Shown piece by piece: positions 37,813 through 62,165 of a DNA stretch of 64,000 nucleotides (position 1 is its first letter; each line of letters starts with the position of its first letter). Made by a program: the position numbers and the translations under genes. A model generated the notes under the pieces. The model ran no database searches, had not been told where the DNA came from, and was given only the letters and a program-made list of their open reading frames with translations. This stretch comes from Dehalococcoidia bacterium (lineage in GTDB: Bacteria > Chloroflexota > Dehalococcoidia > Plut-88900), in the NCBI GenBank assembly GCA_965197645.1, contig OZ240219.1:2912001-2976000 (forward strand), in the 5' to 3' direction.

Positions 37813-37902
<90 letters not shown>

Positions 37903-40010: not shown

Positions 40011-40014
40011 GGCG

Positions 40015-40567: not shown

Positions 40568-40614
40568 TGTGTTGCTGCAAACCTATTCTCGCCCTAATTA
40601 TTGCTTATGCTAGT

Positions 40615-40662: not shown

Positions 40663-40715
40663 GGGAAGCATATGATTACCTCGTCGTTGCACGAACCTCA
40701 GGAGTGGAACAGTCC

Positions 40716-41072: not shown

Positions 41073-41080
41073 GCCGGCGG

Positions 41081-41509: not shown

Positions 41510-42271
41510 GCTAGCCTCTTGCCGAGCCATCAGTTGTGCAAACTCGACCAGAGGTGTGCATCACCGTTTTGCAGCATCGTCCAGCGCATAGCAAGAAGGT
41601 AGCATAGCACTAGCCTTGGTGTTTCGCGCCAACTCAGCATTCCTAGGATTTTGACTCACCAGTGAAGGCCCATCCACGTCCGCAGTTCACAAGAGACCCA
41701 ATATTCTCAGGTCTTCGTGGGTTGTCGACTTGAAGTCATTACGCTTTCCGATTGCTACATTCCTGTGGGAGCCTATGATCTTGGAGCAGTACTCTGATCC
41801 CAACTTCATAACCACCCAACTTGAGAGGTTCGATTCAACTTAGACGGGCCTATTTTGACGATAGACAGAACCGTCTTTGAACTGTGGCTCGGCGGGCTGT
41901 GAACCTCGAGCCCACAACCATGACCGAGAGTTCGAGGCCCTAAGGGTTGTCCTCGTGGGTCTCCACAGTCACCGCGATGCTAGGCGCTTCAAGAACTAGA
42001 GCAGATTCCTTCTTCAGAGCATCCAGGTCAATTCCACGGAGCTTCTCATCAGCCGCGCTAGCAGCATTTAGAGCATCCCGCTTCACATGGCATGAGGGAT
42101 CGAACCGCTGCCGAAAACCAAAGCTCCGACGACCGCGGTGGCTACCGCGACAGTGAAGGAAAGGCCTACGGCGGGCCGGTAGGCGCAGCCCCCTCATCAT
42201 GTCCCGCACCGGACCCGAGCCGTATGCACTTGTCTTGGCGTCCCAAGCCCCTCGAATCAGCCCGTCGCGGG

Positions 42272-42973
42272 TCACTGCCTCTCCGACTCTGGCGGGGAGT
42301 TGTTGCCCACCACCACGTCGTCCACGAGGCCGTTCCGCACAGCCCAGATCACGAGTTCCTGCTTCGTCTCGATGCCCAGCTTTTCCTGAATGCGATAGAG
42401 GTTATTCCGCACAGTGGCAACGCTGTTTCCCCTCGCCTCGGCGATCTCGGTGTACGACCTCCCCCTGGCGAACAGGGTCAGGGTCTCCCGCTCCATCGCC
42501 GTCAACTTGTCCGCAGGCTGACGGGAGACGAGCATGCGCTGGTTCCGGAGCATTGCGAAGACCGCCCTGACCGCCTTGTCAGGAATTCGTAGCCGGCCCT
42601 CGGCTACATCCAGAACGGCTTCCACCAACTCCTCAGGCCGCGAGTACTTCTGAAGGTACCCCGTCGCCCCCGCGGCGACCGCCTCGATCACAGCATCCTC
42701 TTCACTCGAGGCCGTCAGCATCAGCACTCGCGTGTCGGGCAAAAGCTCCATGATCTCCCGGCAGGCATCGATGCCGTCCTTGTTCGGCATGATCACGTCC
42801 ATGACGATGACCTGCGGGTCGATCCCTTCGACGGTCCTCACCGCCTCCTCTCCATCTCCAGCCAGTCCCACCACTTCGAAGCGGCCCGATGCTTCCAGCG
42901 CATCCCCCAAGCCACTCCTCACGATGGGGTGATCATCCACCACCATCACCCTTATTCGACCTGCTGACGACAT
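42272..42973 (-). CDS. NarL/LuxR family response regulator
   Basis: VVDDHPIVR, MDVIMP, GYLQK and a LuxR HTH. Confidence 0.93.
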   Translation of the reverse strand: MSSAGRIRVMVVDDHPIVRSGLGDALEASGRFEVVGLAGDGEEAVRTVEGIDPQVIVMDVIMPNKDGIDACREIMELLPDTRVLMLTASSEEDAVIEAVAAGATGYLQKYSRPEELVEAVLDVAEGRLRIPDKAVRAVFAMLRNQRMLVSRQPADKLTAMERETLTLFARGRSYTEIAEARGNSVATVRNNLYRIQEKLGIETKQELVIWAVRNGLVDDVVVGNNSPPESERQ

Positions 42974-42974
42974 T

Positions 42975-44198
42975 TCAGGCGCCTCCTTTATCTGCTTTGT
43001 GGGGGACCACACAGGCGATGGTCGTTCCGTCTCGTCCCTCGCCGCTCTCCACGATCAGCGTTCCTCCCATCTGCTCAGCGTCCGCCCTCATGCCCTTGAA
43101 GCCGCGACCGCGCTCCGCGTAGTCGTCAGGGAGGCCCACGCCGTCGTCCGAGACGGACAGGCGGATGTGGTCGGCCTCGAAGCTCAACCTGACCTCGACC
43201 CTGCCCGGCCGGGCGTGCAGGAAGGCGTTGGTCAGCGCGTTGTGCGCTATGGAGAAGAGACGGGCTCGGGTCTCCGTGGCAAGAGGCGGCTCGGTCCCCG
43301 ACTGCGCCATCTCGGCTGGAACCCCCGTAATCCTCTCAAACGTCGCGCAGTGCGACCACAGGACCCGCCCCAGCTCCCTGCCCTCCAGGATGTGGCCGGC
43401 GTCGATGGGGCCCCTCACCTCCCACATGGCCGACCTTGACAGGTCGGAGGTCGCATCCAGAGCGGCCACCAATTCCTCGTTCGACTCGCCGGTCAGCTTC
43501 CTGATCCTGTGAATCCCCAGGTCGATCATGTAGGCGGTCTGAGCGGTCGTATCGTGAATCGTCTGGGAGAGCTCGATGCGTTCCCGCCGCAGCTGCCGCT
43601 CCCTTGACATAGCCGTCTGCCACCGGATGCGTTCGAACCGGGTGATGAGGCCGATGCCCAGCACGAGGGTGTACATCATCGCCAGCCTTGCCATGAGCAC
43701 CTTCTCGTTGCCCGCGTCAAGGTCGAGACCGGAGTCCACACGCAAGCACGCGATGGCGTAGGCACCGGCTGCCATCGTCATCCAGACGAGACTGAGCCCA
43801 AGGGACGAGAACACCACGGCAAAGACGGCGAGAGACGGATAGTAAGCCAGGAAGATGAGGCTCGTGTATCCGCCGTCGACGACGACGCCGGCGGTGATCA
43901 TGACAATCTCTGCGGCGCTGACGAAGAGCATCCAGTGCCATGTCAATGGCCTTTTCGTCAGCAGCCGATGGTGCACCAGGCCGTTGAGTATGCCCAGCAG
44001 CACAGGCAAGCCCAGGAGCTCGACGTCCTCGGGATACCAGAAGCCCGGCCGGTAAACCAACAGGAAGACGGCGACGAGCCAGATGAACCACCGACCCCAG
44101 ACGGAGACCCTCGCCGCATACAGGATCACGTCCGGGTCGCTCAGGGCGCCTAGCGTCGCCCACCTCTGTACGGCTCCTCCCATGCCGGCCTTCAGCAA
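42975..44198 (-). CDS. Membrane sensor histidine kinase (HisKA_3/DesK-NarX type)
   Basis: About 5-6 TM segments, IHDTTAQ H-box, NALTNAFLHA, VSDDGVG. Confidence 0.9.
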   Translation of the reverse strand: MLKAGMGGAVQRWATLGALSDPDVILYAARVSVWGRWFIWLVAVFLLVYRPGFWYPEDVELLGLPVLLGILNGLVHHRLLTKRPLTWHWMLFVSAAEIVMITAGVVVDGGYTSLIFLAYYPSLAVFAVVFSSLGLSLVWMTMAAGAYAIACLRVDSGLDLDAGNEKVLMARLAMMYTLVLGIGLITRFERIRWQTAMSRERQLRRERIELSQTIHDTTAQTAYMIDLGIHRIRKLTGESNEELVAALDATSDLSRSAMWEVRGPIDAGHILEGRELGRVLWSHCATFERITGVPAEMAQSGTEPPLATETRARLFSIAHNALTNAFLHARPGRVEVRLSFEADHIRLSVSDDGVGLPDDYAERGRGFKGMRADAEQMGGTLIVESGEGRDGTTIACVVPHKADKGGA

Positions 44199-44380
44199 GT
44201 CCAGGCTCCCGATCCGAAGTCACGTACTCCTCGCATGCACATTGACATTACAGATCGAATCCCCCGCCTGTAGCCACGCAAATCTGTTGGGACATAAACA
44301 CCGACAACTTACATCAAATGCCCAATCTCTACTAGAGCACAATGTACTAACGGTAATAGGCAAAACGCTATCTATGAAAC

Positions 44381-44446
44381 GATGAAAAGAGAAAGGCCAA
44401 CTTTCCCCTTTTCATCTATGCAAACGCCGAAGGGGAACGCCATACT
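44381..44446 (+). promoter_or_regulatory. Inverted repeat GATGAAAAG...CTTTTCATC upstream of a weak promoter (CATACT -10)
   Basis: Perfect 9-bp arms at 44381-44389 and 44408-44416 with inner GAAAG/CTTTC; candidate response-regulator site. Confidence 0.45.
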
Positions 44447-45009
44447 TCACTAGGTTGCTCTGGGAAGCCGTGGGTGGAGCGTGACTGCCGCCTGAGCGGC
44501 AGGCGCCACATCGTACCGTGTTGGATCCCGGAGTAACGCAGGAACGCGCAACAAATTATGGTGATGCTTGAAATGGAAGATGACCTTCACCTCAGCCCGC
44601 CTTACTCACCGCCCGGAACGACTCGAGAGAGGGGACGGGAGGCGATGCGTGTTCCGACCGGGAACAGGCAAGTTCCCGAACTATTGTACTTAGGAGGAAG
44701 CCAGCCTTAGACCCTAAGCCAGAGTTCTAACCTCAAGTACATACCGCCATATCAACCAATCGTCTTGTGCCCGGATAGAGGCTGGGAAGGAAGTCGCCCC
44801 ATGGCGGCGGCTTCTGTTGCACCGGCGGGTTTCCCGCTGCGTCGCCAACGGCCCATGACCCCATGTGGCTACTCCAAGCTCTACTGACAGGGACAAGCCG
44901 CGGCCGTCCGGGCATCCAGGCTCCGCGCCTGCCTCTGGACGCTACCCCAGTTCCGGGCTGCGGAAGCCAAGGGCAGCGAACACTTTGACTATCAAGGAGA
45001 ACCGCAGAA

Positions 45010-48000
45010 TTGACTAAGCTTGTGCCTCTCTTGGCAATCATGGCCCTGTTAATGGGCCTGCCGTCCGTGGCCCACGCCCAGGCCACCACGCCAACCGTAT
45101 CCTCGGCCGCCATCACCTCCAACCCGGGCACGGACAACACCTACGCCACCGGCAACACGGTCACGGTGAGCCTGACCTTCAGCGAGGCGGTCACGATCAC
45201 CGGCACGCCACACGTGGTCGTCGACATTGGCGGGCAGCCCCGGAACTTCAAGTACTCGGGCGACGGAAGCAGCGCGGCGGCGCAGCCGTTCAGCTACACC
45301 GTGCTCGTGGGGGACAAGGACGCGGACGGCGTCTCGTTGCAGGCCAACAGCCTCACGCTGAACGGCGGCACGGTCCAGGCCACCGACGACTCAACCAACG
45401 CCACGCTCACCCATCCCGCCATGACGTTCGCCAACCATAAGGTGGACACCCAGGTCACGCTGCTGAGCAATCTTGGTCAGGCGGACGCATCGGACACCAT
45501 CACCGTCAGCGCGACGGAGAGCGCCAAAATCGAAATTGTTGTGGCCCAGGACAAAGCTTTTGACATCAACGCGATTACGCTCGACGTCAGGACGCCGTCC
45601 GAAACGCTCAACGTCACGGTGAGGCTGTTCGGCGGAGACTTTGCGGACTATACATATACTGGGTCCGTAACGGCCGCGGGCCTGCAGACGTTCACATTGA
45701 GCGGACCGCCAGGGGTGAGCTTTGGCAACGTGGGCTGGGCGGATTTTGGACAAATTTATCGATATCAAATGATAGTTAGCGGATCAGGCGCCGGCAGCGT
45801 CGAACTGGTAGGGACAACAGGCACAGGCACTGACGCAGGTGGTGTCTCAGGCCTAAGCATCCGGGCCGTGAGAGGGGAGACCTCGAACCCCCAGATGCGT
45901 CTATCGGGACACGAAGGTGCGATTCCGAACCTCATGTACGGCGACGTCCTTTCGAGTCCGCCGGACGGGACCGCCTATGCTGCCGGAGACCGGATCGCCT
46001 TCCTGTTCGTGTTCTCCCGGCCTGTGGATTTTCCACAAGGGATCACCGTACCGTTCTGGCTTGGGAACGGCGCCGAGGACCGCCGTGAGGCGAGCCTGAT
46101 CGAGAATCTCTCAGGTTACTACGAGGACCTGTTCTTTTCATACACGGTCCAGCCCGGCGATACGGATTCGGACGGGATATTCCTCGGGGCGGACCCGTTG
46201 GGAGACAATGCGGGTATCGACTTCCATACGGAGGAAACTGCCGCTGTTCCCGCTTACCTGCGACTTGCGGCCAACCAGCTTGCGGCGAGTCAATCCGTCA
46301 ACGGCTCCGGCTCGCGGACCTGCGAGGAGGTTTTCTGCAGCACTGTACTTGTCGGTGAAGAGAGAGTGGGGCTGGAGGCGGCCATTGGGTTTTCCATTTC
46401 GGTTAACGCAAATGCACTCCCCTTCGTTCCACTAGGGGCATCAAGTGCGTTGTCATTTGGCTATGGTGGTGAGGAATATGTGGTAAGAGAATTAGTATTC
46501 CTGGATCAAGCAATCGCCGCCTTAGATCTGCGCTTCCAAAATGGGCTTCCTAGTTCTCACTATGACAGGTTGACTCTCAGCGTGGACGGGACGCTGTTTC
46601 TCCTGAGTGAGGCTTCTAGCTCTTCCGTCGCCGTCCGTTTCCAGTGGAGTGATCCGGTCCTCCCGTGGGCGGCGGGCGACGAGATTGACGTCAAGCTGAT
46701 CGAAACGGCGACGGCCACGTTCGACGCCGCAAGCTACGCCAAGACCGAGGGCGACACCTTCGAAGTGACGGTGACGCTGGGCGACCCATTCGCGAACACC
46801 CTGACGCTTCCCATCGAGGTCGCCGAGAACGGTGGGGCGGATGCCACGGACTACACAGGCATCCCCGAGAACCTGGTCTTCGCGCCCGGCGAGACCGTGA
46901 AGACGTTCACCGTGACCATCGAAGATGACGACTTTAACGACGACGACGAGAGCCTCACCCTCAGCTTCGGCGAGGAGTCCCATATCAGGTCAGGCGGGGC
47001 CAACGAGACCGCCACCATCACCATCACGGATACCGACGGCCCGCAGGTGTCGGTGTCGTTCGGGGCGGGCACGTACACGGTCCCGGAGGGCGGCACCCAG
47101 TCCGTGACGGTGTCGCTAAGCGCCGATCCGGAGCGCACGGTCGAAATTCGCCTCACGCATATGCCCCAGGGCGGCGCCGGCTCCACCGATTACTCCGGCG
47201 TGCCTGCGAATTTGACCTTCAACGCGGGGGAAACTGAGAAGTCGTTCATCTTCACGTCGGCGCAGGACATGGAGGACGACGACGACGAGAGCGTGCTGCT
47301 CGGCTTCGGCACGCCGCTGCCGCCGGGGGTGACCGCTGGAACGACGAGCCAGACAACCGTCAGCATCACAGACGACGACGTTCCGCAGGTGACGGTGATG
47401 TTCCTGGAGAGCGCGTACAATGTCCCGGAGGGCGGCACCCAGTCCGTGACGGTGTCGCTGAGCGCCGATCCGGAGCGCACGGTCGAAATTCGCCTCACGC
47501 ATATGCCCCAGGGCGGCGCCGGCTCCACCGATTACTCCGGCGTGCCTGCGAATTTGACCTTCAACGCGGGGGAAACTGAGAAGTCGTTCATCTTCACGTC
47601 GGCGCAGGACATGGAGGACGACGACGACGAGAGCGTGCTGCTCGGCTTCGGGACGCTGCCAAGCATGGTGAGCGCGGGAACGCCGGCCACGACCACGGTG
47701 AGCATCACCGACAACGACTTCCCGGAGGTGACGGTGATGTTCGGGGCGGACGCCTACACGGTCCCGGAGGGTGGGACCCAGTCGGTGGCGGTAACGCTGA
47801 GCGCCGACCCTGAGCGTACGGTGGTCATTCCCCTCACGACGATGCCCCAGGGCGGCGCGGGCTCCACCGATTACTCCGGCGTGCCTGCGAATTTGACCTT
47901 CAACACGGGGGACACTGAGCAGACGATCACGTTCAGCGCAACCCATGACACGGAGGACGACGACGATGAGAGCGTGCTGCTCGGCTTCGGCGCGAACCTG

Positions 48001-51000
48001 CCGCCGGGGGTGACCGCTGGAACGACGAGCCAGACAACCGTCAGCATCACAGACGACGACGTTCCGCAGGTGACGGTGATGTTCCTGGAGAGCGCGTACA
48101 ATGTCCCGGAGGGCGGCACCCAGTCCGTGACGGTGTCGCTGAGCGCCGATCCGGAGCGCACGGTCGAAATTCGCCTCACGCATATGCCCCAGGGCGGCGC
48201 CGGCTCCACCGATTACTCCGGCGTGCCTGCGAATTTGACCTTCAACGCGGGGGAAACTGAGAAGTCGTTCATCTTCACGTCGGCGCAGGACATGGAGGAC
48301 GACGACGACGAGAGCGTGCTGCTCGGCTTCGGGACGCTGCCAAGCATGGTGAGCGCGGGAACGCCGGCCACGACCACGGTGAGCATCACCGACAACGACT
48401 TCCCGGAGGTGACGGTGATGTTCGGGGCGGACGCCTACACGGTCTTGGAGGGTGGGACCCAGTCGGTGGCAGTAACGCTGAGCGCCGACCCTGAGCGTAC
48501 GGTGGTCATTCCCCTCACGACGATGCCCCAGGGCGGCGCGGGCTCCACCGACTACTCCGGCGTGCCTGCGAATTTGACCTTCAACGCGGGGGAAACTGAG
48601 AAGTCGTTCGTCTTCACGTCGGCGCAGGACACGGAGGACGACGACGACGAGAGCGTGCTGCTCGGCTTCGGCGCGAACCTGCCGATTCGGATTACTCAGG
48701 GCGTCACTAATGAGGCGACAGTGAGCATCACCGACGACGACGACCCGCAGGTGTCGGTGTCGTTCGGGGCGGGCACGTACACGGTCCCGGAGGGCGGCAC
48801 CCAGTCCGTGACGGTGTCGCTAAGCGCCGATCCGGAGCGCACGGTCGAAATTCGCCTCACGCATATGCCCCAGGGCGGCGCCGGCTCCACCGATTACTCC
48901 GGCGTGCCTGCGAATTTGACCTTCAACGCGGGGGAAACTGAGAAGTCGTTCATCTTCACGTCGGCGCAGGACATGGAGGACGACGACGACGAGAGCGTGC
49001 TGCTCGGCTTCGGCACGCCGCTGCCGCCGGGGGTGACCGCTGGAACGACGAGCCAGACAACCGTCAGCATCACAGACGACGACGTTCCGCAGGTGACGGT
49101 GATGTTCCTGGAGAGCGCGTACAATGTCCCGGAGGGCGGCACCCAGTCCGTGACGGTGTCGCTGAGCGCCGATCCGGAGCGCACGGTCGAAATTCCCCTC
49201 ACTCATATGCCCCAGGGCGGCGCCGGCTCCACCGATTACTCCGGCGTGCCTGCGAATTTGACCTTCAACGCGGGGGAAACTGAGAAGTCGTTCATCTTCA
49301 CGTCGGCGCAGGACATGGAGGACGACGACGACGAGAGCGTGCTGCTCGGCTTCGGGACGCTGCCAAGCATGGTGAGCGCGGGAACGCCGGCCACGACCAC
49401 GGTGAGCATCACCGACAACGACTTCCCGGAGGTGACGGTGATGTTCGGGGCGGACGCCTACACGGTCCCGGAGGGTGGGACCCAGTCGGTGGCGGTAACG
49501 CTGAGCGCCGACCCTGAGCGTACGGTGGTCATTCCCCTCACGACGATGCCCCAGGGCGGCGCGGGCTCCACCGACTACACCGTGCCGTTGAGTGTGACGT
49601 TCAACACGGGGGACACTGAGCAGACGATCACGTTCAGCGCAACCCATGACACGGAGGACGACGACGATGAGAGCGTGCTGCTCGGCTTCGGCGCGAACCT
49701 GCCGATCCGGATTACTCAGGGCGTCGCTAATGAGGCGACAGTGAGCATCACCGACGACGACGACCCGCAGGTGACGGTGTCGTTCGGGGCGGGCACGTAC
49801 ACGGTCCCGGAGGGTGGGACCCAGTTGGTCACGGTCAACCTGAGCGCCGACCCGGAGCGCACGGTGGTTATTCCCCTCACGACGATGCCCCAGGGCGGGG
49901 CGGGCTCCACCGACTACTCCGTGCCGTTGAGTGTGACCTTCAACACGGGGGAGATGTCGAAGACGATCACGTTCAACGCAACCCATGACACGGAGGACGA
50001 CGACGATGAGAGCGTGCTGCTCGGCTTCGGCGCGAACCTGCCATCGCGGGTGATTCAGGGCGCCCCCAACGAGGCGACGGTGAGAATCACTGACGATGAT
50101 GATCCAGAGGTAACGGTGATGTTCGCCCAGATGGCCTACACGGTCCCGGAGGGCGGGACACAGTCGGTGACGGTCAACCTGAGCGCCGATCCGGAGCGCA
50201 CGGTGGTCATTCCCCTCACGACGATGAACCAGGGCGGAGTGGACGCCACCGACTATTCCGTGCCGACGAGCGTGACGTTCAACTCGGGGCAGATGTCGAA
50301 GACGATCATGTTCAGTGCAACCCATGACACGGTGGACGACGACGATGAGAGCGTGAAGATGGCCATCGGCACACCGCTGCCATCGCGGGTTACCCAGGGC
50401 GCCCCCAACGAGGCGACTGTGACCATCACCGACGACGACGACCCCTTCGTCGAGGTGCAGTTCGCTCAGAACTCCTACACCGTCCCTGAAGGAGGGACGC
50501 AGGCGGTGACGGTCACCCTGAGCGCGGACCCGGAACGCACGGTGGACATCCCCCTGGTGGCCACCGCACAGGGCGGGGCGGACATCACTGACTACTCCGT
50601 ACCGTTGGGCGTGATCTTCAACTCGGGGGAGCTGTCGAAGACGATCACTTTCAGCGCGACCCATGACACGGTGGACGACGACAACGAGAGCGTGCGGCTC
50701 GCCATCGGCGCGATCCTGCCGGCTCGGGTGAGCCGGGGCGCCACCAACGAGACGACGGTGAGCATCACCGACGACGATGACCCCCATGTGACGGTGATGT
50801 TCGCCCAGGCCGGCTACCGTGTGGTTGAGGGCGAGACGGTCGCGGTGCGCGTCACGCTGAGCGCGGACCCGGAGCGCACGGTGACCATTCCCCTGGTCGC
50901 CACCGGACAGGTCGGGGCGACCACCGACGACTATTCCGGCGTACCGGAGGATTTGACCATCAACGCCGGCGAGACGTCGAAGACATTCGAATTCATGGCG

Positions 51001-54000
51001 ACGGCGGACGAAACCTCCGACACGGGCGAGAGCGTCAATATCAGCTTCGGGACCAGCCTGCCGTCCCGGGTGACCGAGGGAACCCCGAATGAGGCTACGG
51101 TGACCATCAAGCAGGTGTCCACGCAGTTCAGCCTGGACTGCACCGGGACCGCAGCGGCGTGGTGCGCCGACGTGGGGTTCTCCGACCAGACCGCCGAGAA
51201 CTGGGGCCGGGCCAATCTGCGGTACGGCCGGGGTTTGGACCCGGTGGCCAGCCTGAGCAATGACGTATTTCGGTTCCGGGGCGTGGACTACACCGTCTTG
51301 AGCATGGAATTGCGGCCGGGAACCCACCCGATCATGCCAAATGCATGGAGCAGGTGGCAGCAGGGCTACTCGAGTTTCCGCATAGTCATCAACTGGGGCC
51401 CCAGCTTGCGGGGGGATCCGGTGGAGGAGCACTACCGGGACTGGGTCCTGCACCTGGACGGGCTGGAACTCCCGTTCAAGGACGCCTTTGTGTATAGGAA
51501 CAACTTCACGTGGGTGGGGGCGGAGTTCCAGCAGATCTTCAACGACTGGACCCCATCGACGGTGACCAAGGTAGGCATCGAAGAGGTGGCGGTGGCAGAT
51601 CAGGACACCAATCCGCTGCTGCCATGGGCGCCGATGCAGGTGGATGCAACGCCCGAAGGACCCAACGGGCTCCGGATAGATTGGGCCAAGCCGGCTTGGT
51701 ACACTCCCGGGCTAAACCTTCCCGGACTGCCAGAGCCAACCAAATATATCGTCCAGTGGAAGCTGGCGCCGGTAGGCTGGGGTGATAGCGCCGACGTGTC
51801 GCAGCGGGAGATGGCAGCCGGCTCCAATTCCCACTCGTTGACCGTGGATGGTCTGACCGAAGACGCGCTCTACTCGGTGCGCGTCATCGCCGGAAACGAT
51901 GCCGGCGACGGGCCGCCCTCCGAGGAAACGCTGGGCCGCCCGCAGGACGGCGTCATAGCGCTGCTTGCCAAGACGGTGAATGGGCGGACGCTGACGCTGC
52001 GCTTCAGCGAGCGGCTGGATCCGAACGCAGTCCCGGCGGAGACCGACTTCGTGGTCATCGCCGATGGCGGACTGATCGCGGTCGATTCCGTGGCGATCAG
52101 CGGCGATGCGGTCACCCTCACCCTGGACCGGGCCGTAACGGCCGCCAACTCCGTCCTGGCGCGCTACGACAAGCCCACCGATCCGTCGGCAGTGTTCCTG
52201 CGTGACACCGGCGGCGACCACGTGCAGATTCGCCAGCATTTTGAGTTGTTGCGCGCCGTCAACGCGACACCCCAATCGTCGGTGCAGCCGCTGACCGCGC
52301 AATTCGCCAACATGCCGAGCTCTCACGACGGAGCGACCCGTTTCACCTTCGAGATCGAATTCAGCGAGCCGGTCTGGGTGGGCATTGGGCTCCCCAGGGA
52401 CGACATGCTGGAAGTCACGGGGGGCACGGTCATCAGCGCGCCCTGGAAGGACCGGCGCACGGACAAGGTGACCGTCCATGTCCAGCCTGACACCACGGGC
52501 GACATCGTCATTGTCCTGGCCGGCAACCGGGTCTGCGCAGGGATAATCGGCTCCGGCGACCTACCCGATGACCCGGTCGCGGGCGCTCCATGCGCCATCG
52601 GGAACCGTATGCTGACCAACGATTCCACCATGACGATTCCGGGCCCTTCGTCATCAGGCCAGCAAGTTGTGGAGAACACCCCGGCCGAAGGCGAGCCGCG
52701 CATCGATGGAGTCCCGGAGGTGGGGCAGACGCTGTCGGCCGACACCACGGGCATTGTGGACGTCGACGGCCTGGATGACGTTGTCTTCCGATACCAGTGG
52801 CTGGCCGACGGCGCGGTGATCGCCAGCGCCACCGGCGCCACCTACACCGTAGTGTCCGGAGACGTGGGCAAGGCCATCAGGGTGCGGGTCGCCTTCACCG
52901 ATGACGGGGGCAACGAGGAGACGCTGACCAGCGCGCCAACCGTGGTGACGGCGGCGGGCCTGCAGCTCCAGTCGGCCACAGTGGATGGTGTCACCCTGAT
53001 GCTGACCTATAGCGAGGTCCTGGACAACGGGGTCACGCTGGGGACGACTCTCTTCGCCGTGAACGTGAACGGGTCACCCCGGTCGCTCTCCGGCGTCGCG
53101 GTTGGCGGATCCAACGTGCTATTGCTTCTGTCCTCGGCGGTGGAGGCCGGGGACACGGTGACGGTGGACTACACCGCGCCCAACGGCCCCGATTTCATCC
53201 GGGACACCCTCGGCAGGAAGGCGGCCTCCTTCAGCGGGCAGGCGGTGACGAACGACACCGCCGTTTCAGGAGGCGGGAGGTCGGACCCGGCGGAAGCGCC
53301 CGGCGCCCCGGACAGCCTGGAGGTGGTCCGGTATGAGAGCGGCAAGCTGAGGGCCTCCTGGGACGCCCCCGATTCAGACCCCGCTCCCACCGGGTACACC
53401 GTCCAGTGGAAGGAGTCCGCGGACTCCTGGGCGGACTTGGACGACGTCTCCGAGGCCAATGTGAAGGAGACCTCCCACGTCATCACGGGGCTGACCGACG
53501 GCGTGGAGTACGCCGTCCGGGTCATGGCGCGCAAGGGCGACGCCGAAAGCACCCCCTCCGGGGAGGTCGCGGCCACGCCCCAGGAGACGGAGCCGCCCGC
53601 GCCATCGTCGGCCTCGGTGGACGGGGCCACCCTCACCATCATCTTCGACGAGCCTCTGGACCCTGGCGAGACGCCGGCCAAGTCCGCCTTCGCGGTGACC
53701 GCGAGAGACGTCGGCTGGGGCGTGGAAACCGTTGCGGTGTCGGGAAGCGGGGTGACCATCACCCTTGCGGCGGCGGTGTGCGCCGGCGACGCGGTATCGG
53801 TGGGTTACACGGCCCCTGCGGACGCGTCGGCGGTCCGGCTGCAGGACCTGGCGGGCAACGCCGCGGCATCCTTTAGCGAGTGGCAGGTGACCAACAACAC
53901 CGGGGCGGCGGGCCAACTGACTGCGTGCGCCCGCGGCGTGCCGGCATCCCACGACGGGAGTGCCTCATTCACCTTCGAGCTGCGTTTCAGCGAGGAGTTC

Positions 54001-54249
54001 TCCATCAGCTACAGGACCCTGCGGGACCACGCCTTCACGGTGACCGGGGGCGAGGTGGTCAGGGCAAAGCGGCTTGAGAGGGGCAAGAACGTCAGGTGGG
54101 AGATCAGCGTCAGACCGGACGGAAACGGCGCCGTAACCATAACGCTGCCTGTCACGACGGACTGCGAGGACGAGGGTGCCATCTGCACCGGGGACGCCAG
54201 GATGCTGTCCAACCGGGTGGAACTGACCGTCGGCGGTCCAGACGGATAG
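45010..54249 (+). CDS. Giant secreted modular surface protein (signal peptide, ~13 Calx-beta-like repeats, FN3 and SwmB-like domains)
   Basis: 3079 aa; signal ending AHA-Q; D-rich ~113-aa repeats; FN3 (W..P..Y.VQW, Y.VRV.A); three SATVDG.TL.L.FSE.LD-type SwmB-like units. Confidence 0.88.
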   Translation: MTKLVPLLAIMALLMGLPSVAHAQATTPTVSSAAITSNPGTDNTYATGNTVTVSLTFSEAVTITGTPHVVVDIGGQPRNFKYSGDGSSAAAQPFSYTVLVGDKDADGVSLQANSLTLNGGTVQATDDSTNATLTHPAMTFANHKVDTQVTLLSNLGQADASDTITVSATESAKIEIVVAQDKAFDINAITLDVRTPSETLNVTVRLFGGDFADYTYTGSVTAAGLQTFTLSGPPGVSFGNVGWADFGQIYRYQMIVSGSGAGSVELVGTTGTGTDAGGVSGLSIRAVRGETSNPQMRLSGHEGAIPNLMYGDVLSSPPDGTAYAAGDRIAFLFVFSRPVDFPQGITVPFWLGNGAEDRREASLIENLSGYYEDLFFSYTVQPGDTDSDGIFLGADPLGDNAGIDFHTEETAAVPAYLRLAANQLAASQSVNGSGSRTCEEVFCSTVLVGEERVGLEAAIGFSISVNANALPFVPLGASSALSFGYGGEEYVVRELVFLDQAIAALDLRFQNGLPSSHYDRLTLSVDGTLFLLSEASSSSVAVRFQWSDPVLPWAAGDEIDVKLIETATATFDAASYAKTEGDTFEVTVTLGDPFANTLTLPIEVAENGGADATDYTGIPENLVFAPGETVKTFTVTIEDDDFNDDDESLTLSFGEESHIRSGGANETATITITDTDGPQVSVSFGAGTYTVPEGGTQSVTVSLSADPERTVEIRLTHMPQGGAGSTDYSGVPANLTFNAGETEKSFIFTSAQDMEDDDDESVLLGFGTPLPPGVTAGTTSQTTVSITDDDVPQVTVMFLESAYNVPEGGTQSVTVSLSADPERTVEIRLTHMPQGGAGSTDYSGVPANLTFNAGETEKSFIFTSAQDMEDDDDESVLLGFGTLPSMVSAGTPATTTVSITDNDFPEVTVMFGADAYTVPEGGTQSVAVTLSADPERTVVIPLTTMPQGGAGSTDYSGVPANLTFNTGDTEQTITFSATHDTEDDDDESVLLGFGANLPPGVTAGTTSQTTVSITDDDVPQVTVMFLESAYNVPEGGTQSVTVSLSADPERTVEIRLTHMPQGGAGSTDYSGVPANLTFNAGETEKSFIFTSAQDMEDDDDESVLLGFGTLPSMVSAGTPATTTVSITDNDFPEVTVMFGADAYTVLEGGTQSVAVTLSADPERTVVIPLTTMPQGGAGSTDYSGVPANLTFNAGETEKSFVFTSAQDTEDDDDESVLLGFGANLPIRITQGVTNEATVSITDDDDPQVSVSFGAGTYTVPEGGTQSVTVSLSADPERTVEIRLTHMPQGGAGSTDYSGVPANLTFNAGETEKSFIFTSAQDMEDDDDESVLLGFGTPLPPGVTAGTTSQTTVSITDDDVPQVTVMFLESAYNVPEGGTQSVTVSLSADPERTVEIPLTHMPQGGAGSTDYSGVPANLTFNAGETEKSFIFTSAQDMEDDDDESVLLGFGTLPSMVSAGTPATTTVSITDNDFPEVTVMFGADAYTVPEGGTQSVAVTLSADPERTVVIPLTTMPQGGAGSTDYTVPLSVTFNTGDTEQTITFSATHDTEDDDDESVLLGFGANLPIRITQGVANEATVSITDDDDPQVTVSFGAGTYTVPEGGTQLVTVNLSADPERTVVIPLTTMPQGGAGSTDYSVPLSVTFNTGEMSKTITFNATHDTEDDDDESVLLGFGANLPSRVIQGAPNEATVRITDDDDPEVTVMFAQMAYTVPEGGTQSVTVNLSADPERTVVIPLTTMNQGGVDATDYSVPTSVTFNSGQMSKTIMFSATHDTVDDDDESVKMAIGTPLPSRVTQGAPNEATVTITDDDDPFVEVQFAQNSYTVPEGGTQAVTVTLSADPERTVDIPLVATAQGGADITDYSVPLGVIFNSGELSKTITFSATHDTVDDDNESVRLAIGAILPARVSRGATNETTVSITDDDDPHVTVMFAQAGYRVVEGETVAVRVTLSADPERTVTIPLVATGQVGATTDDYSGVPEDLTINAGETSKTFEFMATADETSDTGESVNISFGTSLPSRVTEGTPNEATVTIKQVSTQFSLDCTGTAAAWCADVGFSDQTAENWGRANLRYGRGLDPVASLSNDVFRFRGVDYTVLSMELRPGTHPIMPNAWSRWQQGYSSFRIVINWGPSLRGDPVEEHYRDWVLHLDGLELPFKDAFVYRNNFTWVGAEFQQIFNDWTPSTVTKVGIEEVAVADQDTNPLLPWAPMQVDATPEGPNGLRIDWAKPAWYTPGLNLPGLPEPTKYIVQWKLAPVGWGDSADVSQREMAAGSNSHSLTVDGLTEDALYSVRVIAGNDAGDGPPSEETLGRPQDGVIALLAKTVNGRTLTLRFSERLDPNAVPAETDFVVIADGGLIAVDSVAISGDAVTLTLDRAVTAANSVLARYDKPTDPSAVFLRDTGGDHVQIRQHFELLRAVNATPQSSVQPLTAQFANMPSSHDGATRFTFEIEFSEPVWVGIGLPRDDMLEVTGGTVISAPWKDRRTDKVTVHVQPDTTGDIVIVLAGNRVCAGIIGSGDLPDDPVAGAPCAIGNRMLTNDSTMTIPGPSSSGQQVVENTPAEGEPRIDGVPEVGQTLSADTTGIVDVDGLDDVVFRYQWLADGAVIASATGATYTVVSGDVGKAIRVRVAFTDDGGNEETLTSAPTVVTAAGLQLQSATVDGVTLMLTYSEVLDNGVTLGTTLFAVNVNGSPRSLSGVAVGGSNVLLLLSSAVEAGDTVTVDYTAPNGPDFIRDTLGRKAASFSGQAVTNDTAVSGGGRSDPAEAPGAPDSLEVVRYESGKLRASWDAPDSDPAPTGYTVQWKESADSWADLDDVSEANVKETSHVITGLTDGVEYAVRVMARKGDAESTPSGEVAATPQETEPPAPSSASVDGATLTIIFDEPLDPGETPAKSAFAVTARDVGWGVETVAVSGSGVTITLAAAVCAGDAVSVGYTAPADASAVRLQDLAGNAAASFSEWQVTNNTGAAGQLTACARGVPASHDGSASFTFELRFSEEFSISYRTLRDHAFTVTGGEVVRAKRLERGKNVRWEISVRPDGNGAVTITLPVTTDCEDEGAICTGDARMLSNRVELTVGGPDG
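47041..50100 (+). repeat. Near-identical ~340-bp intragenic tandem repeats
   Basis: Higher-order periods of 681 bp (47383 vs 48064) and 1704 bp (47041 vs 48745). Confidence 0.93.
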
Positions 54250-54557
54250 GCCGGGTGGGTGGAGAGCGCTGGGCCTTCCAGGCAACAAGAAAACAGGATA
54301 CATGGATGAATCGGTGAGGCAAGCGTCCCACCGGCAACCGTAACGCCCTAGGGCCGAGGCGAACAGGAAAGGGGACGCTTGCACGCGGATTGGAGAGAGT
54401 CACCAGGGCGGCGGCCTCCCCCAAGGCTGCGGGTTGGACCGACTGCGGGCGCTTGCGTTCCGCACGCCGTCCCGCCTGGGGTTTCCGTCCTGCGGAAGGA
54501 CCGGACATCCCCGTAGGAGGGAGCTTGCAGCCGTCTTCCGGAAGGACCGCCGATTCC

Positions 54558-54842
54558 ATGCCTCGACAACGCATCCACCACAGCAGAGTGACCTACCAGG
54601 TCCCCCACGACTTCCCGGAGCGGCTGGAGCGATTCAAGGAGGAGTCGGGCCTGTCGTGGTCGGAGATCGCCCGTCGTCTCGACGTCCATCACGAGACGCT
54701 GCGGCGCTGGAGGAAGGGTCGCGCTCGCCCCACCACCGCTTACGGTAGATACCGCCATCTTCGAGATGTCGCTCGGCAGCCTGTCGGCGCACCAAGGACT
54801 CGCGATTCCTGTAGTGTGACGTGTAGGGACGGTGGAACGTAG
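54558..54842 (+). pseudogene. 3'-truncated XRE HTH gene (MPRQRIHH family)
   Basis: Matches the 61815 gene up to GRARP (~54730), then unrelated sequence. Confidence 0.7.
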
Positions 54843-54864
54843 GGAGCGTCTCGCCATTGGGGCT

Positions 54865-57261
54865 TCACTCTCTCTGCGTCTCCCCCTTGGGCATCCGGTA
54901 GCCGACGCGAGGCTCGGTGAAGATGTAGGTGGGATTGTCGGCGTCGTCGCCCAGCTTGCGGCGGAGGCTGCTAACGATGGTCCTCATGGCGCGAACGTCG
55001 CTGTCGGTCTTCTCCCCCCACACCCGTTGCAGCAGATGCTCGTAGGTCAACACCCGTCCTCCGTTCGCCGAAAGCTCGGCGAGCAGCCGGTACTCGATGG
55101 CCATCAGCTGGAGCGGACGGCCTGCGAGCGTCGCCCGGCGTTCGCCGTAGTTGACCACAAGGCCGCCCATCACATACGGCTCTGACGACTCGGCCGCCGC
55201 CCGCTTCCGCAGGGCCGCCCTGATCCTCGCCGCAAGCTCAGTTGGAGAGAAGGGCTTGGCGACGTAATCCACGGCCCCCATGTCCAAGGCCCTGGCAACA
55301 AGCTGGTCCTGTCCATAGGCGGACAGGAAGATCACCGGCACGTCCACCGTCTCCAGGATGTCCCTCATCAACTCGATCCCGTCGGCGCCCGGCAGCATCA
55401 TGTCGAGCAGGACAAGATCGGGCTTCTCGTCTGCCACGAGGCGGAGCGCCTCTCCCGGGTCACCAGTCACCAGCGGCGCATAGCCCGCCCTGTTGAGTGC
55501 GTCGCCGACGTACCTGAGCGCCTGGGGGTCGTCGTCCACCGCGAGGACGCGCACCGGTTGACCCGCCTCCCCCACCGCTCGCCGTGAGGAGCGGACCGAG
55601 CGCGGGGTGGGGATGCTCGCCGTGCCGCTACCGGACTCTTCGACAGACGGAAGCGTGAAGGTGAACCGCGCTCCCATGCCCGGCCCCTCGCTCTCGGCCC
55701 ATATCCGGCCCCCGTGCGCCTCCACTATCCCCTTGCAGATGGCGAGACCCAGGCCCGACCCGAGGACACCGCTTCCGCGTTCGTCGCCCTCGATCCGGGT
55801 GAACTTCCGAAACAGGAAGGGCAGCTGCTCGGAGGGTATGCCCCTGCCCTCGTCGGCCACCGAGACCGCAACGTAAACGCCCTCCCGCACGGCGGTCACC
55901 GTGATGACGGACGACTCCGAGGAGTGCCGGGCGGCGTTGGACAGGAGGTTGCCCAGGACCTGCACGATGCGCAGCCGGTCCGCCATGACCAGGGGCAGGT
56001 CGGGTCCGATCTCGATGGCCAGGTTGTTCCTTCCCCCGGCACTGATGAAGGCGCTCCTTGCCCGGTCCACCAGCGCCGCCACCTCCGCAGGCTCCGGGGC
56101 GACCGGCAGCGTGCCCGTCTCGATGCGCGCCACGTCCAATAGGTCGGCCACCAGGTCGTGCATGTGGTCGGCCTGCTCCTCGATGATGCGGAAGAACTGC
56201 CGGACCACTGCGGGATCCATGTCGGTGGACGAACCCAGCACCGTTGCCGCGGAGCCCTTGATGGAGGTCAGCGGCCCCCGCAGCTCGTGGCTCACCATCC
56301 CCAGGAACTCGGCGCGCAGCCGCTCAAGCTCCTCCAGGGCCGTCATGTCCTGGAGGGTGACGACCACCGACTCCAGCTCTCCCTCCGCCGAGAGGATGGG
56401 CGTGGCGTTGATGATGGTGGTGACGCTCCGCCCGTCGGGGACCTGCATCACGATCTCCTCGGCCCGCACCGTCTCCCCCGTGCTCAGCGCCTGCGCTATC
56501 GGGAACTCTTGCAGCGAAATCTCCCGCCCGTCGGCTCGCCGGTAGGTCAGCGTCTGAAGCAGCTCCTCCGCCGACTGGTCGGGGTTGCGCAGGCCGTCGA
56601 CGATCCTCCTCCCCTCGCGGTTGAGCGACGACGGGGCTCCGGTCTTCGCATCGAAGACCACCACGCCCACGGGACAGGTGTTGACGAGGGTCTCCAGGTC
56701 GGCCCTGGCCCGCTGCTCCTCCCTGTGCCTGCGGGCGTTGGTAATGGCCATCGCCGCCTGGGACGCGAACATCAGCAGCGTGTCCTCGTCCTCCTGGGTG
56801 AACTCAAGGCCGCCCTCCTTGTCCGATAGATAGAGGTTGCCGATGTGTCGCCCCCTGTGACGGATGGGCGCGCCCAAAAAGCCTTGCACCGGCCCCAGGG
56901 GAGGGCCGATCTCCGGCAGGCCCGCCGCCGTCGTGTAGGCGGAGAAGTCCGCCAGCCTGAGCGGTTCCGGAATCATGCTCAGGTAGGCGAAGAACTCCGG
57001 TCCCCCCGGCAGGTCCACGAACCGCTGGCGCTCTTCGGCGGTCATGCCGGAGGTGATGAATGACGTCAGCTCCCCTGCCTCGTCGAGGGCGGTAAGGCCG
57101 CTGATCCTCGCGCCGGTGAGGGAGCGAGCTGCGTCCACCACCTCTTGCAGGACGGTATCGAGGTCGAGGTCCTCGGTGATGCGGACGCCCGCCTCACTCA
57201 GTCCGGAGAGGCGGTTCCGCAGGGTTTCTATCTCCCGTTTCAGGCTGTCTGCTGGCTCCAA
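54865..57261 (-). CDS. Soluble hybrid sensor-regulator GAF-PAS-HisKA-HATPase-REC-OmpR wHTH
   Basis: VSHELRGPL, NLLSNA, GSGLGL, VDDDP, DMMLP, KPF, YIFTEPRVGYR; no TM segment. Confidence 0.92.
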   Translation of the reverse strand: MEPADSLKREIETLRNRLSGLSEAGVRITEDLDLDTVLQEVVDAARSLTGARISGLTALDEAGELTSFITSGMTAEERQRFVDLPGGPEFFAYLSMIPEPLRLADFSAYTTAAGLPEIGPPLGPVQGFLGAPIRHRGRHIGNLYLSDKEGGLEFTQEDEDTLLMFASQAAMAITNARRHREEQRARADLETLVNTCPVGVVVFDAKTGAPSSLNREGRRIVDGLRNPDQSAEELLQTLTYRRADGREISLQEFPIAQALSTGETVRAEEIVMQVPDGRSVTTIINATPILSAEGELESVVVTLQDMTALEELERLRAEFLGMVSHELRGPLTSIKGSAATVLGSSTDMDPAVVRQFFRIIEEQADHMHDLVADLLDVARIETGTLPVAPEPAEVAALVDRARSAFISAGGRNNLAIEIGPDLPLVMADRLRIVQVLGNLLSNAARHSSESSVITVTAVREGVYVAVSVADEGRGIPSEQLPFLFRKFTRIEGDERGSGVLGSGLGLAICKGIVEAHGGRIWAESEGPGMGARFTFTLPSVEESGSGTASIPTPRSVRSSRRAVGEAGQPVRVLAVDDDPQALRYVGDALNRAGYAPLVTGDPGEALRLVADEKPDLVLLDMMLPGADGIELMRDILETVDVPVIFLSAYGQDQLVARALDMGAVDYVAKPFSPTELAARIRAALRKRAAAESSEPYVMGGLVVNYGERRATLAGRPLQLMAIEYRLLAELSANGGRVLTYEHLLQRVWGEKTDSDVRAMRTIVSSLRRKLGDDADNPTYIFTEPRVGYRMPKGETQRE

Positions 57262-57348
57262 TGCGCCACCTCGCTTGTGCTCCCAAGCCCGCGTCTACGA
57301 ACCGGCTGGAATTGGGACAACTGGGGCAATTCTAGCATTTTGGGCCAA

Positions 57349-57414
57349 AGTTGATAAGACATTACGGAAAACACGTCGAAAGTTGATAGCGAGTTGATAC
57401 GCGTGCGGTATAGT
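57349..57414 (+). promoter_or_regulatory. AGTTGATA direct repeats and TATAGT -10 (OmpR/PhoB-type box)
   Basis: Copies at 57349, 57381 and 57392 (last two 11 bp apart); TATAGT at 57409-57414. Confidence 0.65.
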
Positions 57415-57450
57415 GGGGTATGACTTTGCCCGATTGAGGGAGATATTCAC

Positions 57451-57897
57451 TTGGCGTTCGACAGGCCGATACCTGCAACAGAGACAGCGGGCGCACCGGC
57501 GGCGTTAGCCGCCGTGCCGACCGCGCTTGAGGCCGTCTTCGCCCGCTGCGTGTTCGCACAAATGTTCCCCCCCCCCCCCCGATTTTCGTCGCCAGCCCGT
57601 AACCGGGCCTCTCTACTTCGCTTCAATCCCCCTCGTCTCCGCCGCGTCGCCGCACGCCCGGAGCACAAGCCGCTTTCGCACGGCGCACCCAGCGCCCCTG
57701 GGGAATGGGCAGGTCCCTTGCCGACCGACTTCGCCCGTCCGCCGTCTCTCATACCAACCGCCGCCCTCAACGCCCCACTAGGCGCGCGCCCGTGGGTACC
57801 CAACCTTGCGTATCGACGCAGGCTCACGCCAGCGGCCCCGTTGGACGGAGGCCCGGCGACGGCCATGCGCAACACACACCAGGAGGATAAACGATGA
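57451..57897 (+). CDS. Putative leader ORF spanning a C14 tract; its stop overlaps the adhesin ATG (ATGA)
   Basis: GAGGGAG SD at 57436-57442 and TTG start; low-complexity product. Confidence 0.4.
   Translation: MAFDRPIPATETAGAPAALAAVPTALEAVFARCVFAQMFPPPPRFSSPARNRASLLRFNPPRLRRVAARPEHKPLSHGAPSAPGEWAGPLPTDFARPPSLIPTAALNAPLGARPWVPNLAYRRRLTPAAPLDGGPATAMRNTHQEDKR
57567..57580. repeat. Poly-C(14) simple sequence repeat
   Basis: Only long homopolymer seen in the window; lies in the 5' leader of the second surface-protein gene. Confidence 0.9.
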
Positions 57898-61637: not shown

Positions 61638-61814
61638 GGAGGCGGCGTGCCGTTGAAGCGGCTGCGCCCGCGGGGCCTGAAGACGCAAAAAGGGCAGCAC
61701 ACATGGGAAGTCCGGGCGGGGCGGCGGTCCCGCCCGGACAACGGATTCGCCCAATTCCAGGAGTGGACAGACGGCGGGAGCGTCCTGGCGAGTCCCTGTG
61801 GAAGGACCGGCCAG

Positions 61815-62060
61815 ATGCCGAGACAGCGCATACACCACACCAGAGTGACCTACGACTTCCCCGACGACTTCCCTGAGCGGCTCGTGCGGTTCCAGGAGGA
61901 GTCGGGGCTGTCGTGGGCGGAGATCGCCCGTCGACTCGGCATCCATCCCTACACCATGAGGCGCTGGGTCCTGGGCCGGGCACGCCCCAGCATGCGTCAT
62001 ATGATGGCCCTGCTTGAGCTGGCCGAGGAGTTGGGCCTCGCCCACCTGTTCACCGACTGA
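61815..62060 (+). CDS. Small XRE HTH protein (MPRQRIHH family)
   Basis: DFPERLVRFQEESGLSWAEIARRLG...LAEELGLAHLF; GGAAGGA SD. Confidence 0.82.
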   Translation: MPRQRIHHTRVTYDFPDDFPERLVRFQEESGLSWAEIARRLGIHPYTMRRWVLGRARPSMRHMMALLELAEELGLAHLFTD

Positions 62061-62124
62061 GCCTGTGCAACAACCCGCGACGGCAGGGCCTGAAACGCAA
62101 AGAAGGCGACACACATGACCGCAA

Positions 62125-62157
62125 GGGGTAGCACACCGAATCGTGGTGTGCTACCCC
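62125..62157. terminator. Perfect 13-bp hairpin between convergent genes
   Basis: GGGGTAGCACACC-GAATCGT-GGTGTGCTACCCC. Confidence 0.6.
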
Positions 62158-62165
62158 CGGACTCT

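Follow-up and report, generated by a model that had tools for sequence, protein, structure and literature searches.

The closest described systems, as far as the accessible parts of the sources show, are the ssrA-specific genomic islands of Dehalococcoides with the serine integrase DsiB (McMurdie et al., 2011, PMC3146451) and the accretion seen among ICEs (integrative and conjugative elements) and CIMEs (cis-mobilizable elements), including ICESt1 with its internal attL′ (PMC5704250, PMC5812530; ICEscreen, PMC9585547). Off-target integration and recombination between duplicated backbones are both known in other ICEs in the available text of PMC5812530, and attachment proteins with fn3 or cadherin domains are described, in the available text of Robbins et al. 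(2021, PMC8163846), as enriched in sponge symbionts (fn3 being abundant in Chloroflexota) and as laterally transferred. In the present study, we analysed a 64-kb stretch of a Dehalococcoidia bacterium (the window; G000:2912001-2976000, where G000 is the source genome, a single contig of 3.21 Mb); plain positions are those of the window and the prefix G000: marks genome coordinates. As a preliminary description of this DNA had claimed, the same architecture occurs twice in a row, and all genes and domain characters were recovered at the positions given there: each module comprises a regulator, a divergent giant surface protein (adhesins 1 and 2) and an XRE gene (XRE1 and XRE2). Both modules are very probably the cargo (left) arms of an ICE family moved by a large serine recombinase (LSR), and this family seems to transport genes for attachment proteins among Dehalococcoidia, exchanging them and switching them at random.

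The identity of the modules as ICE arms follows from the full set of conjugation and LSR genes behind module 2. The backbone, which extends to G000:2991728, encodes a multi-HTH protein, a TrbL-like protein, pilins, PrgI-like, VirB4-like and coupling proteins, a Replic_Relax relaxase, an XRE cluster and the LSR (G000:2990052-2991728; Resolvase, Recombinase and Zn-ribbon domains), whose neighbours include RHH, aspartyl-protease-like, XRE and relaxase genes. The relaxase, coupling protein and VirB4 by which an ICE is recognized were thus all present (Replic_Relax, TrwB_AAD_bind and P-loop_TraG/AAA_10), together with the TrbL-like, pilin and PrgI-like genes; the VirB4 matches in NCBIfam fall below the equivalog cut-offs, and the best NCBIfam match of the LSR, CcrB, is likewise below its cut-off. 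All genes called from 54865 through the LSR are intact (gene calls and clustering in G000 used our own hexamer model). In genome G000 the conjugation cluster is present six times, and six LSR genes, whole or fragmentary, were counted; the sister elements there were named E1 (1.33-1.38 Mb), E2 (1.79-1.80 Mb) and E4 (2.53-2.56 Mb). The standard layout of the family is attL, cargo, XRE, backbone, conjugation genes, LSR and attR, and the cargo most often consists of one or several giant surface proteins accompanied by a two-component regulator in divergent orientation; two ICEs of genome G010 carry the adhesin slot without the XRE.

The element ends share the arm pattern CACCA-N6-ACGGTAGA, which at no more than one mismatch has seven matches in G000, all at element ends and two of them within LSR 3′ ends; at two mismatches the number of matches is 56. 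The pattern was present in 12 of the 18 genomes searched (reversed control, 0) and LSR homologues in nine. At its end an LSR gene passes into the arm and an 8-bp core; host DNA follows, in many cases the 3′ end of a tRNA gene read backwards. The far element ends consist of the core, 7 bp and an arm encoding in frame the missing C-terminus of the LSR; two joints resemble an intact attP (L074 and L082). The targets are the 3′ ends of tRNA-Ile, -Ala and -Lys genes or look-alike sites, and the tmRNA gene at G000:2680279 adjoins no LSR. The cores occur in either of two orientations, called type A (GGTGGGCC, central GG) and type B (GGCCCACC, central CC). Serine recombinases exchange strands at a central dinucleotide, which fits the GG or CC cores. 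The attL core of the window (41843-41850) and that of its partner at the LSR 3′ end (attR, G000:2991636-2991658, core G000:2991651-2991658, 15.6 kb beyond the right edge of the window) are both of type A, and the heptamers beside these outer cores are the same pair that bounds two G010 ICEs. The mobile unit is therefore likely to extend over 37.8 kb, from 41843 to G000:2991658, and to contain both modules.

Other att arrangements were observed among the relatives. At G000:1928343-1928366 (L009), two left-type arms stand back to back over one core, an unusual recombinase product; convergent LSR pairs of two classes meet at a shared att site (G010:C3:85305-88444, G010:C5:2030750-2033892 and others), and arms of the second LSR class flank many left ends. 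A mini-element at G000:1791395-1803460 (L002) has an LSR and a tRNA gene at each end and a sulfatase-bearing surface protein of 1630 aa, without conjugation genes.

The junction between the modules lies on a second arm of the same kind. The preliminary description had noted that the first XRE gene is cut there, which the homologues bear out: XRE1 matches them for 60 codons and then diverges, the break falling on a type-B core (54727-54734) whose arm also forms the left end of E4 at G000:2533627. The intact E4-type XRE reads GCCCCAGC and the arm core GGCCCACC, and the window reads GCCCCACC, following the XRE on the left and the arm on the right, with CCCA common to both around the central CC. 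Because matches of core quality are common by chance, the argument rests on the breakpoint falling on the core of an otherwise complete arm, and we are fairly confident that the junction was made by an LSR. Segments over 54729-57700 are 91%-97% identical to E4, the left part of module 2 reaching 95%-97%; the conjugation region is 77%-91% identical to E4, E1 and a third copy alike, and the far backbone is 69%-91% identical to E4, E1 and E2 being equally or more similar near the LSR. A simple insertion was ruled out, as the 3′ half of XRE1 is missing from the right end of the ICE, and so was a reciprocal crossover between XRE1 and XRE2, as XRE1 and its spacer resemble a native allele (L155) from the first codon.

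Considering these results, the following history is somewhat favoured. A type-A ICE with module 1 would have resided in the tRNA-Ser element, and a type-B ICE with module 2 would have integrated off-target at an att-like site within XRE1. The two directly repeated backbones may then have recombined, so that one of them was lost together with an LSR, the 3′ end of XRE1 and the type-B attR; what remained would be a single ICE of 37.8 kb, both of whose ends are of type A, with two cargo arms. Nesting followed by backbone recombination accounts for the junction, the cores and the ancestry from starting elements with matched ends, and the tandem itself is a one-off product of known ICE behaviour. 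The features of the locus are given in Table 1.

Table 1. Coordinates of the locus features in the window
Feature	Position	Strand	Basis or remark
tRNA-Ser(TGA), target of the outer tyrosine-integrase element	37813..37902	+	tRNA prediction; 3′-end repeats downstream
Outer element core: tyrosine integrase, AlpA, XRE cluster, ImmR/ImmA-like pair	37972..41509	.	domains, sister copy
attL, type A core, of the likely 37.8-kb LSR ICE	41843..41902	+	arm supplies the final codons that the recombinase gene lacks
Module 1 regulator: membrane HisKA_3 kinase and NarL/LuxR-type response regulator	42272..44198	-	domains
Inverted repeat, spacer 1	44381..44416	.	86% complementary
Module 1 surface protein (adhesin 1), 3079 aa, signal-peptide-like start	45010..54249	+	Calx-beta x13, SwmB x3, fn3 x2
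Motif M (core box), after adhesin 1	54282..54305	+	profile match
XRE1, first 60 codons only, cut by second att arm	54558..54734	+	homologue comparison
Internal attL arm, type B core	54727..54790	+	module 1/2 junction, putative crossover in att-like site of XRE1
Module 2 regulator: hybrid kinase (GAF-PAS, cytoplasmic) with a fused receiver and an OmpR-type DNA-binding domain	54865..57261	-	domains
Four phased half-sites and extended -10-like box facing adhesin 2	57347..57414	+	half-sites at 57352, 57363, 57384, 57395
Leader open reading frame, 148 codons	57451..57897	+	ribosome-binding site 57436-57443; stop overlaps adhesin 2 start (ATGA)
C14 tract in leader	57567..57580	+	candidate phase-variation switch
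Module 2 surface protein (adhesin 2), 1247 aa	57894..61637	+	fn3, cadherin, PPC, Calx-beta
Motif M, after adhesin 2, GC-rich hairpin next	61685..61706	+	profile match
XRE2, intact, 81 aa, mosaic	61815..62060	+	lineage switch near codon 10-13
Motif M, after XRE2	62097..62118	+	profile match
Multi-HTH gene, first ICE backbone gene	62166..63272	-	domain search

The preliminary description had regarded the modules as a cassette-like system and had named a lack of enrichment of the XRE genes beside surface-protein genes, with a fixed arrangement, as fatal to that view; what was found is a unit that recurs with swapped regulators and adhesins. In G000, all six MPRQR-type XRE genes (57%-100% identity to XRE2) stand directly behind a surface gene of 832-3079 aa in an ICE-type island. 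Among the strongest matches outside G000, a giant or adhesin-like gene lies upstream in 11 of 16 XRE loci of family relatives and G037, and in three other families 11 loci have an adhesin (seven), a lipoprotein-like gene (three) or a type I restriction gene (one) in this place; upstream of 11 weaker XRE paralogues, taken as the control, there was no adhesin. In a set of 79 loci with close XRE homologues (78 labelled Dehalococcoidia or Chloroflexota and one another taxon), an adhesin-like gene is directly upstream in 39, of which 37 were recognized by BLAST and two by Pfam, with 19 of 27 unclassified genes scanned; other upstream genes are lipoprotein or META genes (six) and type I restriction genes (five), four loci belong to the paralogue cluster, and the gene downstream is a TPR gene in 23, a multi-HTH gene in seven and another backbone gene in seven. 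The three sets (16, 11 and 79) overlap and their loci come from kin genomes, so the counts are not independent. The order of att arm, DesK/NarL pair, surface gene(s) and XRE recurs in G072, G149 and G133, where the regulator pair behind the same att arm is homologous to that of module 1, and that of hybrid kinase, surface gene(s) and XRE in G133, G195, G104 and G059. Similar adhesins are found with unlike regulators, those of a 3100-3400-aa type standing behind a hybrid kinase in G331 but behind a DesK/NarL pair in G037, and XRE2-type genes stand behind differing adhesins.

Within module 2, the homology to E4 breaks at 58351 and resumes at 61629; the hybrid kinase is 97% identical to the E4 protein, and adhesin 2 resembles the E4 adhesin over its first 140 aa only. 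Near codons 10-13 of XRE2 the ancestry switches, the spacer being 91%-93% identical to one lineage and the gene 94%-97% to another, and a homologous crossover maps to the XRE 5′ end. Adhesin bodies may be swapped by homologous recombination between conserved flanks, namely the leader and first fn3 domain on one side and a conserved box, motif M, with the XRE gene on the other; the XRE would be a regulator at the cargo-backbone boundary and a homology anchor. Of the cassette-like view, the recurring set of divergent regulator, surface gene, motif and XRE and the crossover at the XRE 5′ end stand, and the stand-alone system does not. No evidence was found that the XRE regulates the adhesins, a shared role proposed earlier.

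Several loci depart from this content. The slot is filled by type I restriction genes, not adhesins, at L049, L139 and L157-L162, with CRISPR-like genes further upstream at L049. Behind one XRE, a TPR protein of 383 aa (L004:13067-14218) has motif M on both sides, and such a TPR gene occurs in the 23 loci noted above. At G000:2005992-2039853 (L007, L010), four large surface genes and lipoprotein genes follow one DesK/NarL pair, with leader copies (one with C9) and without an XRE. An XRE with a cadherin/Calx-beta adhesin also occurs in a genome labelled outside Chloroflexota (L220), where cross-phylum transfer or a binning error is possible.

Motif M comprises an A-rich box and CAYACATGG, together with a GC hairpin that varies. 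The boundary motif reported in the preliminary description is real, and it is not specific to adhesins, being found also behind XRE2 and other genes. A hidden Markov model trained on nine matches in relatives gave 15 matches in G000 at E<0.2, all 15 inside islands (our own intervals, 16% of the genome). The motif follows the stop codons of adhesin, XRE, TPR and lipoprotein genes or lies convergent behind backbone genes, tandem copies occur, and it is upstream in 34 and downstream in 42 of the 79 XRE loci. Rfam had no match for it, the only entry above the gathering threshold in the window being the tRNA. Motif M may be a gene-end, terminator-like element that also provides short homology.

Adhesin 2 is preceded by a leader that may act as a switch. 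Aligned spacers share a ribosome-binding site and an open reading frame that begins with M(A/T)(F/L)DR and has, about 116 nt in, a tract of C. In the window, one C more or less stops the leader at offset 152 or 331 of 447, about 295 or 115 nt short of the adhesin start. The leader tracts of G000 (C20, C15 and C14) are the longest homopolymers of any kind in this genome and the three longest of its nine C/G runs of at least 9, with 0.28 runs of at least 14 expected, and 15 C runs of at least 9 at further loci mostly have the same placement. The leader pattern matched eight of the 401 genomes. Of 23 leaders, three rearranged ones were set aside; among the 20 counted, nine run into the next start codon in the assembly as it stands (in one case that of a frameshifted gene), six do so with one C gained or lost, three stop 14-24 nt short and two are uncoupled. 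In three long leaders the coupled frame is open for about 100 codons, an ATGA start alone giving one stop frame automatically. Over the 200 nt past the tract the C/G ratio is 1.85-2.2, against a 99.9th percentile of 1.88 in coding sequence, and Rho is present in G000; Rho polarity is therefore favoured over occlusion of the ribosome-binding site, which was rejected as the OFF mechanism (the site is about half unpaired, 0.45-0.66). A structured RNA was likewise rejected (consensus fold -4.4 kcal/mol, two-sided change in one of 13 pairs), and no intrinsic terminator was found on the leader strand.

Slippage of the C14 tract would move the leader in or out of frame, an early stop would expose the C-rich stretch to Rho or uncouple translation, and random ON/OFF display of adhesin 2 would result. 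A long simple repeat able to shift the frame before a surface gene is the placement of a contingency locus, and the tract probably functions as such a switch. Several points call for caution. Among 12 of 120 indel rows listed, based on contigs, no within-sample variant of tract length was found; codon bias in the leader is modest (342, 367 and 442 changes by codon position, in pairs that are not independent); four of the 23 leaders start with ATA, and short leaders have near-start stops; homopolymer lengths in long-read assemblies can be wrong; and module 1 has no MAFDR-type leader, its longest run being C5. The pil1 locus of Streptococcus gallolyticus is similar in that a repeat in a leader frame shifts the frame and controls a downstream surface-structure gene, but, as far as the accessible text goes, it differs in its repeat (GCAGA there, poly-C here), in the ON frame, which here ends on the adhesin start, and in mechanism (hairpin attenuation there, whereas Rho or coupling is proposed here) (Danne et al., 2014, PMC3894217). 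Phase variation and coupling are treated as separate classes in the accessible part of PMC3711429. Among the other leaders, that of the L002 mini-element has its tract collapsed to C4 with the coupled frame kept, that at L058:4365 (G002) is joined straight to an XRE gene with the adhesin deleted in between, at L048:10391 (G008) a frame across the C23 tract stays open as far as the adhesin, so that this tract may lie in the coding 5′ end and not in a leader, and C10 and C13 tracts between consecutive surface genes at L136:9029 and 5555 (G104) have a frame ending on the next start, so that gene-by-gene switches are possible.

OmpR/PhoB-type activators are expected to bind phased direct repeats just upstream of a -10 box. 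The 11-bp-phased repeats noted earlier in spacer 2 fit this geometry: copies of the AAAGTTGATA type lie at 57347, 57379 and 57390 (spacing 32 and 11), and four half-sites at offsets of about 0, 11, 32 and 43 with the -10-like box beat shuffles (at most 2 of 100) in nine of 12 hybrid-kinase spacers and in none of 12 DesK/NarL spacers, the consensus and offsets having been picked by eye from the same spacers, so that only the control is independent. We consider it likely that the hybrid kinase, through its OmpR-type domain and the phased half-sites, would activate the adhesin 2 promoter. For NarL/LuxR-type activation a conserved inverted-repeat operator is expected. The inverted repeat previously assigned to this geometry in spacer 1 exists, but its palindrome does not clearly exceed shuffled sequence: the best palindromes of six DesK/NarL spacers were reached by 2-23 of 25 shuffles, and one relative has a palindrome of different sequence at the equivalent place. 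A NarL box (TAGGCA-N6-TGCCTA) was rejected, scoring high in one of 15 spacers, that of the window.

Compared with the nested insertion and resolution proposed above, classical accretion would start from module 1 as a decayed CIME with an ICE beside it, and a later deletion from XRE1 to the att site, by the LSR or through 4-bp microhomology, would have lost the first backbone. Stacked att arms and att-att joints are common (G000:1928343/1928366, L087, L137), and accretion is known, in the accessible literature, for Dehalococcoides islands and streptococcal elements. However, this course needs two elements with unlike end cores (A...B then B...A), whereas nesting starts from matched ones, and microhomology alone must hit the att core by chance; accretion is possible and appears the less likely course. 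More doubtful still is a dedicated cassette system in which site-specific recombination would be anchored at motif M or the XRE gene and would add or shuffle regulated adhesin units as in integrons. The order adhesin-M-XRE-M-TPR-M in E4, where M flanks consecutive genes, the restriction of the matches to islands with a profile trained on relatives only, the frequency of M on either side of the XRE and the return of E4 homology 8 bp ahead of the adhesin stop would suit it, but what lies at the module 1/2 junction is an LSR att arm, with the closest M 420 bp away, M has variable hairpins and tandem copies and also lies convergent behind backbone genes, no dedicated recombinase lies close to it, and the tandem modules of G133 are separated by att arms.

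The least probable alternative is a dead or mis-assembled mosaic, with the tandem as island debris or a strain chimera and the tract as an assembly artefact. G000 is a metagenome-type assembly with 6.35% contamination, no contig crosses the junction among those listed, and many sister islands are decayed; yet no gene called between 54865 and the end of the LSR is broken, mis-assembly would hardly produce a join that is exact to the base on a recombinase core, and C tracts occur at the same position in other genomes, with lengths of 14, 15 and 20 among the G000 copies. Of 24 runs listed, two of them sponge metatranscriptomes, contigs of four were compared: pieces 99%-100% identical to adhesin 1 occurred in three of DNA and in one of sponge RNA, the latter indicating presence and not proving transcription, and neither tract variants nor circles were seen. 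The near-zero cover of adhesin 2 in the sponge RNA run and a 54548-61814 joint backed by 30-31 letters only were not used as evidence.

Several points weigh against the nested history and the ICE that it yields. The XRE1-att junction was found in one of the 401 genomes; no second att-cut XRE was found among the other homologues listed or in the rest of those genomes, so the XRE was rejected as a recurrent integration site, and four short or broken XRE genes among the 79 loci result from nonsense, frameshift or start-shift changes. The 8-bp core alone is weak, matches at six of eight positions with the central CC occurring 11 times per kb, and comparison of identity with the sister elements did not locate the backbone crossover. 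The right flank matched G000 alone among the 401 genomes, and because no empty target site was matched, the outer ends are paired by their core type and by comparison with analogues; the LSR tree did not separate the core types (a quick tree in which six rows have mis-picked or degenerate ends). Excision and conjugative transfer are predicted capacities of the element. The account that joins ICE arms, junction, history, regulation and switching is the best explanation and, as a whole, a likely one.

Relative to the DsiB islands in the accessible text (PMC3146451), the locus shares a CcrB-like LSR of about 540 aa whose gene overlaps the att site without a stop of its own, as well as tandem islands, discordant histories of integration and cargo, and integrase-less islands ascribed to accretion. 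It differs in targets (ssrA with a direct repeat there, tRNA 3′ ends or look-alikes in two core orientations here), in its full conjugation module and in cargo (dehalogenases there, regulated surface proteins here), and the six-gene module described there (DsiA, RecF, ParBc, Mom, tRNA-like) was not seen beside the LSR. ICESt1, as far as its accessible descriptions go, likewise has an internal left att, older cargo on one conjugation module and nested and tandem forms, but here a serine recombinase takes the place of a tyrosine recombinase, and the single internal arm has another core dinucleotide and lies inside a coding gene, so that separate excision of an inner unit is not expected. A CIME keeps attL and attR without integrase or transfer genes; module 1 has an attL, and its right edge has no attR arm and is a cut XRE joined to the left arm of another element, although by analogy it may be said to work like accreted cargo. 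SXT/R391 and ICEBs1 show, in the accessible text, hybrids from tandem arrays, secondary-site integration and a conserved backbone with variable cargo (PMC5812530); the SXT/R391 backbone is unrelated, and the variable region here is one arm with a recurrent regulator-adhesin design. Integrons combine an IntI tyrosine recombinase and attI with promoterless cassettes that end in attC; here each module has divergent promoters and regulators of its own, the tyrosine integrase close by is a phage-type enzyme with an arm-binding domain, and the junction is an LSR arm. The element has the sequence features of an ICE and does not qualify as an ssrA island, a CIME or an integron. No description of the family or slot was found in the literature searched, mostly without subscription papers and without supplements, and the family is apparently undescribed.

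The earlier placement of the modules on a tRNA-Ser element applies to the outer shell, with its tRNA-Ser and tyrosine integrase (37972-39303, by domain search), and not to the modules, which are themselves the LSR ICE arms; the outer core is a landing pad outside them. Repeats of the tRNA-Ser 3′ end lie 135 and 154 kb downstream (G000:3085173 and 3104034). A sister copy of the core at G000:1900345-1904138 is 92%/80% identical, and this sister element at 1.90 Mb was struck by a type-B end at the homologous spot. Two of the three XRE genes that lie with AlpA and the ImmR/ImmA-like pair at 39239-41509 are MPRQR-family paralogues. In module 1, 42272-43012 encodes receiver and GerE domains (NarL-like) and 42975-44198 HisKA_3 and HATPase domains; in module 2, the order over 54865-57261 is GAF-PAS-HisKA-HATPase-receiver-Trans_reg_C. 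Both XRE genes are HTH_3-like, and the ESM Atlas likewise gave a generic HTH_3. Near-identical Calx-beta repeats at 47000-50800 in adhesin 1 may change in number by recombination. A two-cysteine domain of about 110 aa at 53920-54249, without a Pfam family, recurs at the end of or within many of these adhesins and has a possible role in anchoring or export; the ESM Atlas leads for the adhesin C-terminus were Ig-like/SwmB at 0.91.

Robbins et al. (2021, PMC8163846) report the same domain types and, in the accessible text, propose a mobile vehicle with no element identified; the present locus would be a concrete vehicle for laterally moved attachment genes, with att sites defined to the base. The LSRs, with tRNA 3′ ends as targets and two orientations of the core, could also serve as tools for integration. 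Surface variation may have three layers, namely signal-dependent activation, random slippage and recombination. We tentatively suggest, as a possibility less likely than the history of the locus itself, that an expression slot for adhesins, borne on ICEs, is common to the Dehalococcoidia of sponge-type communities; it would be bracketed by a conserved promoter and leader and by a conserved M-XRE end, with an exchangeable giant surface gene, interchangeable two-component activators, a poly-C leader switch and stacking of whole slots by an LSR with two core orientations. If so, the slot would be a conjugative, community-wide system of surface variation, in which the XRE is kept as a recombination anchor and secondary integration site.

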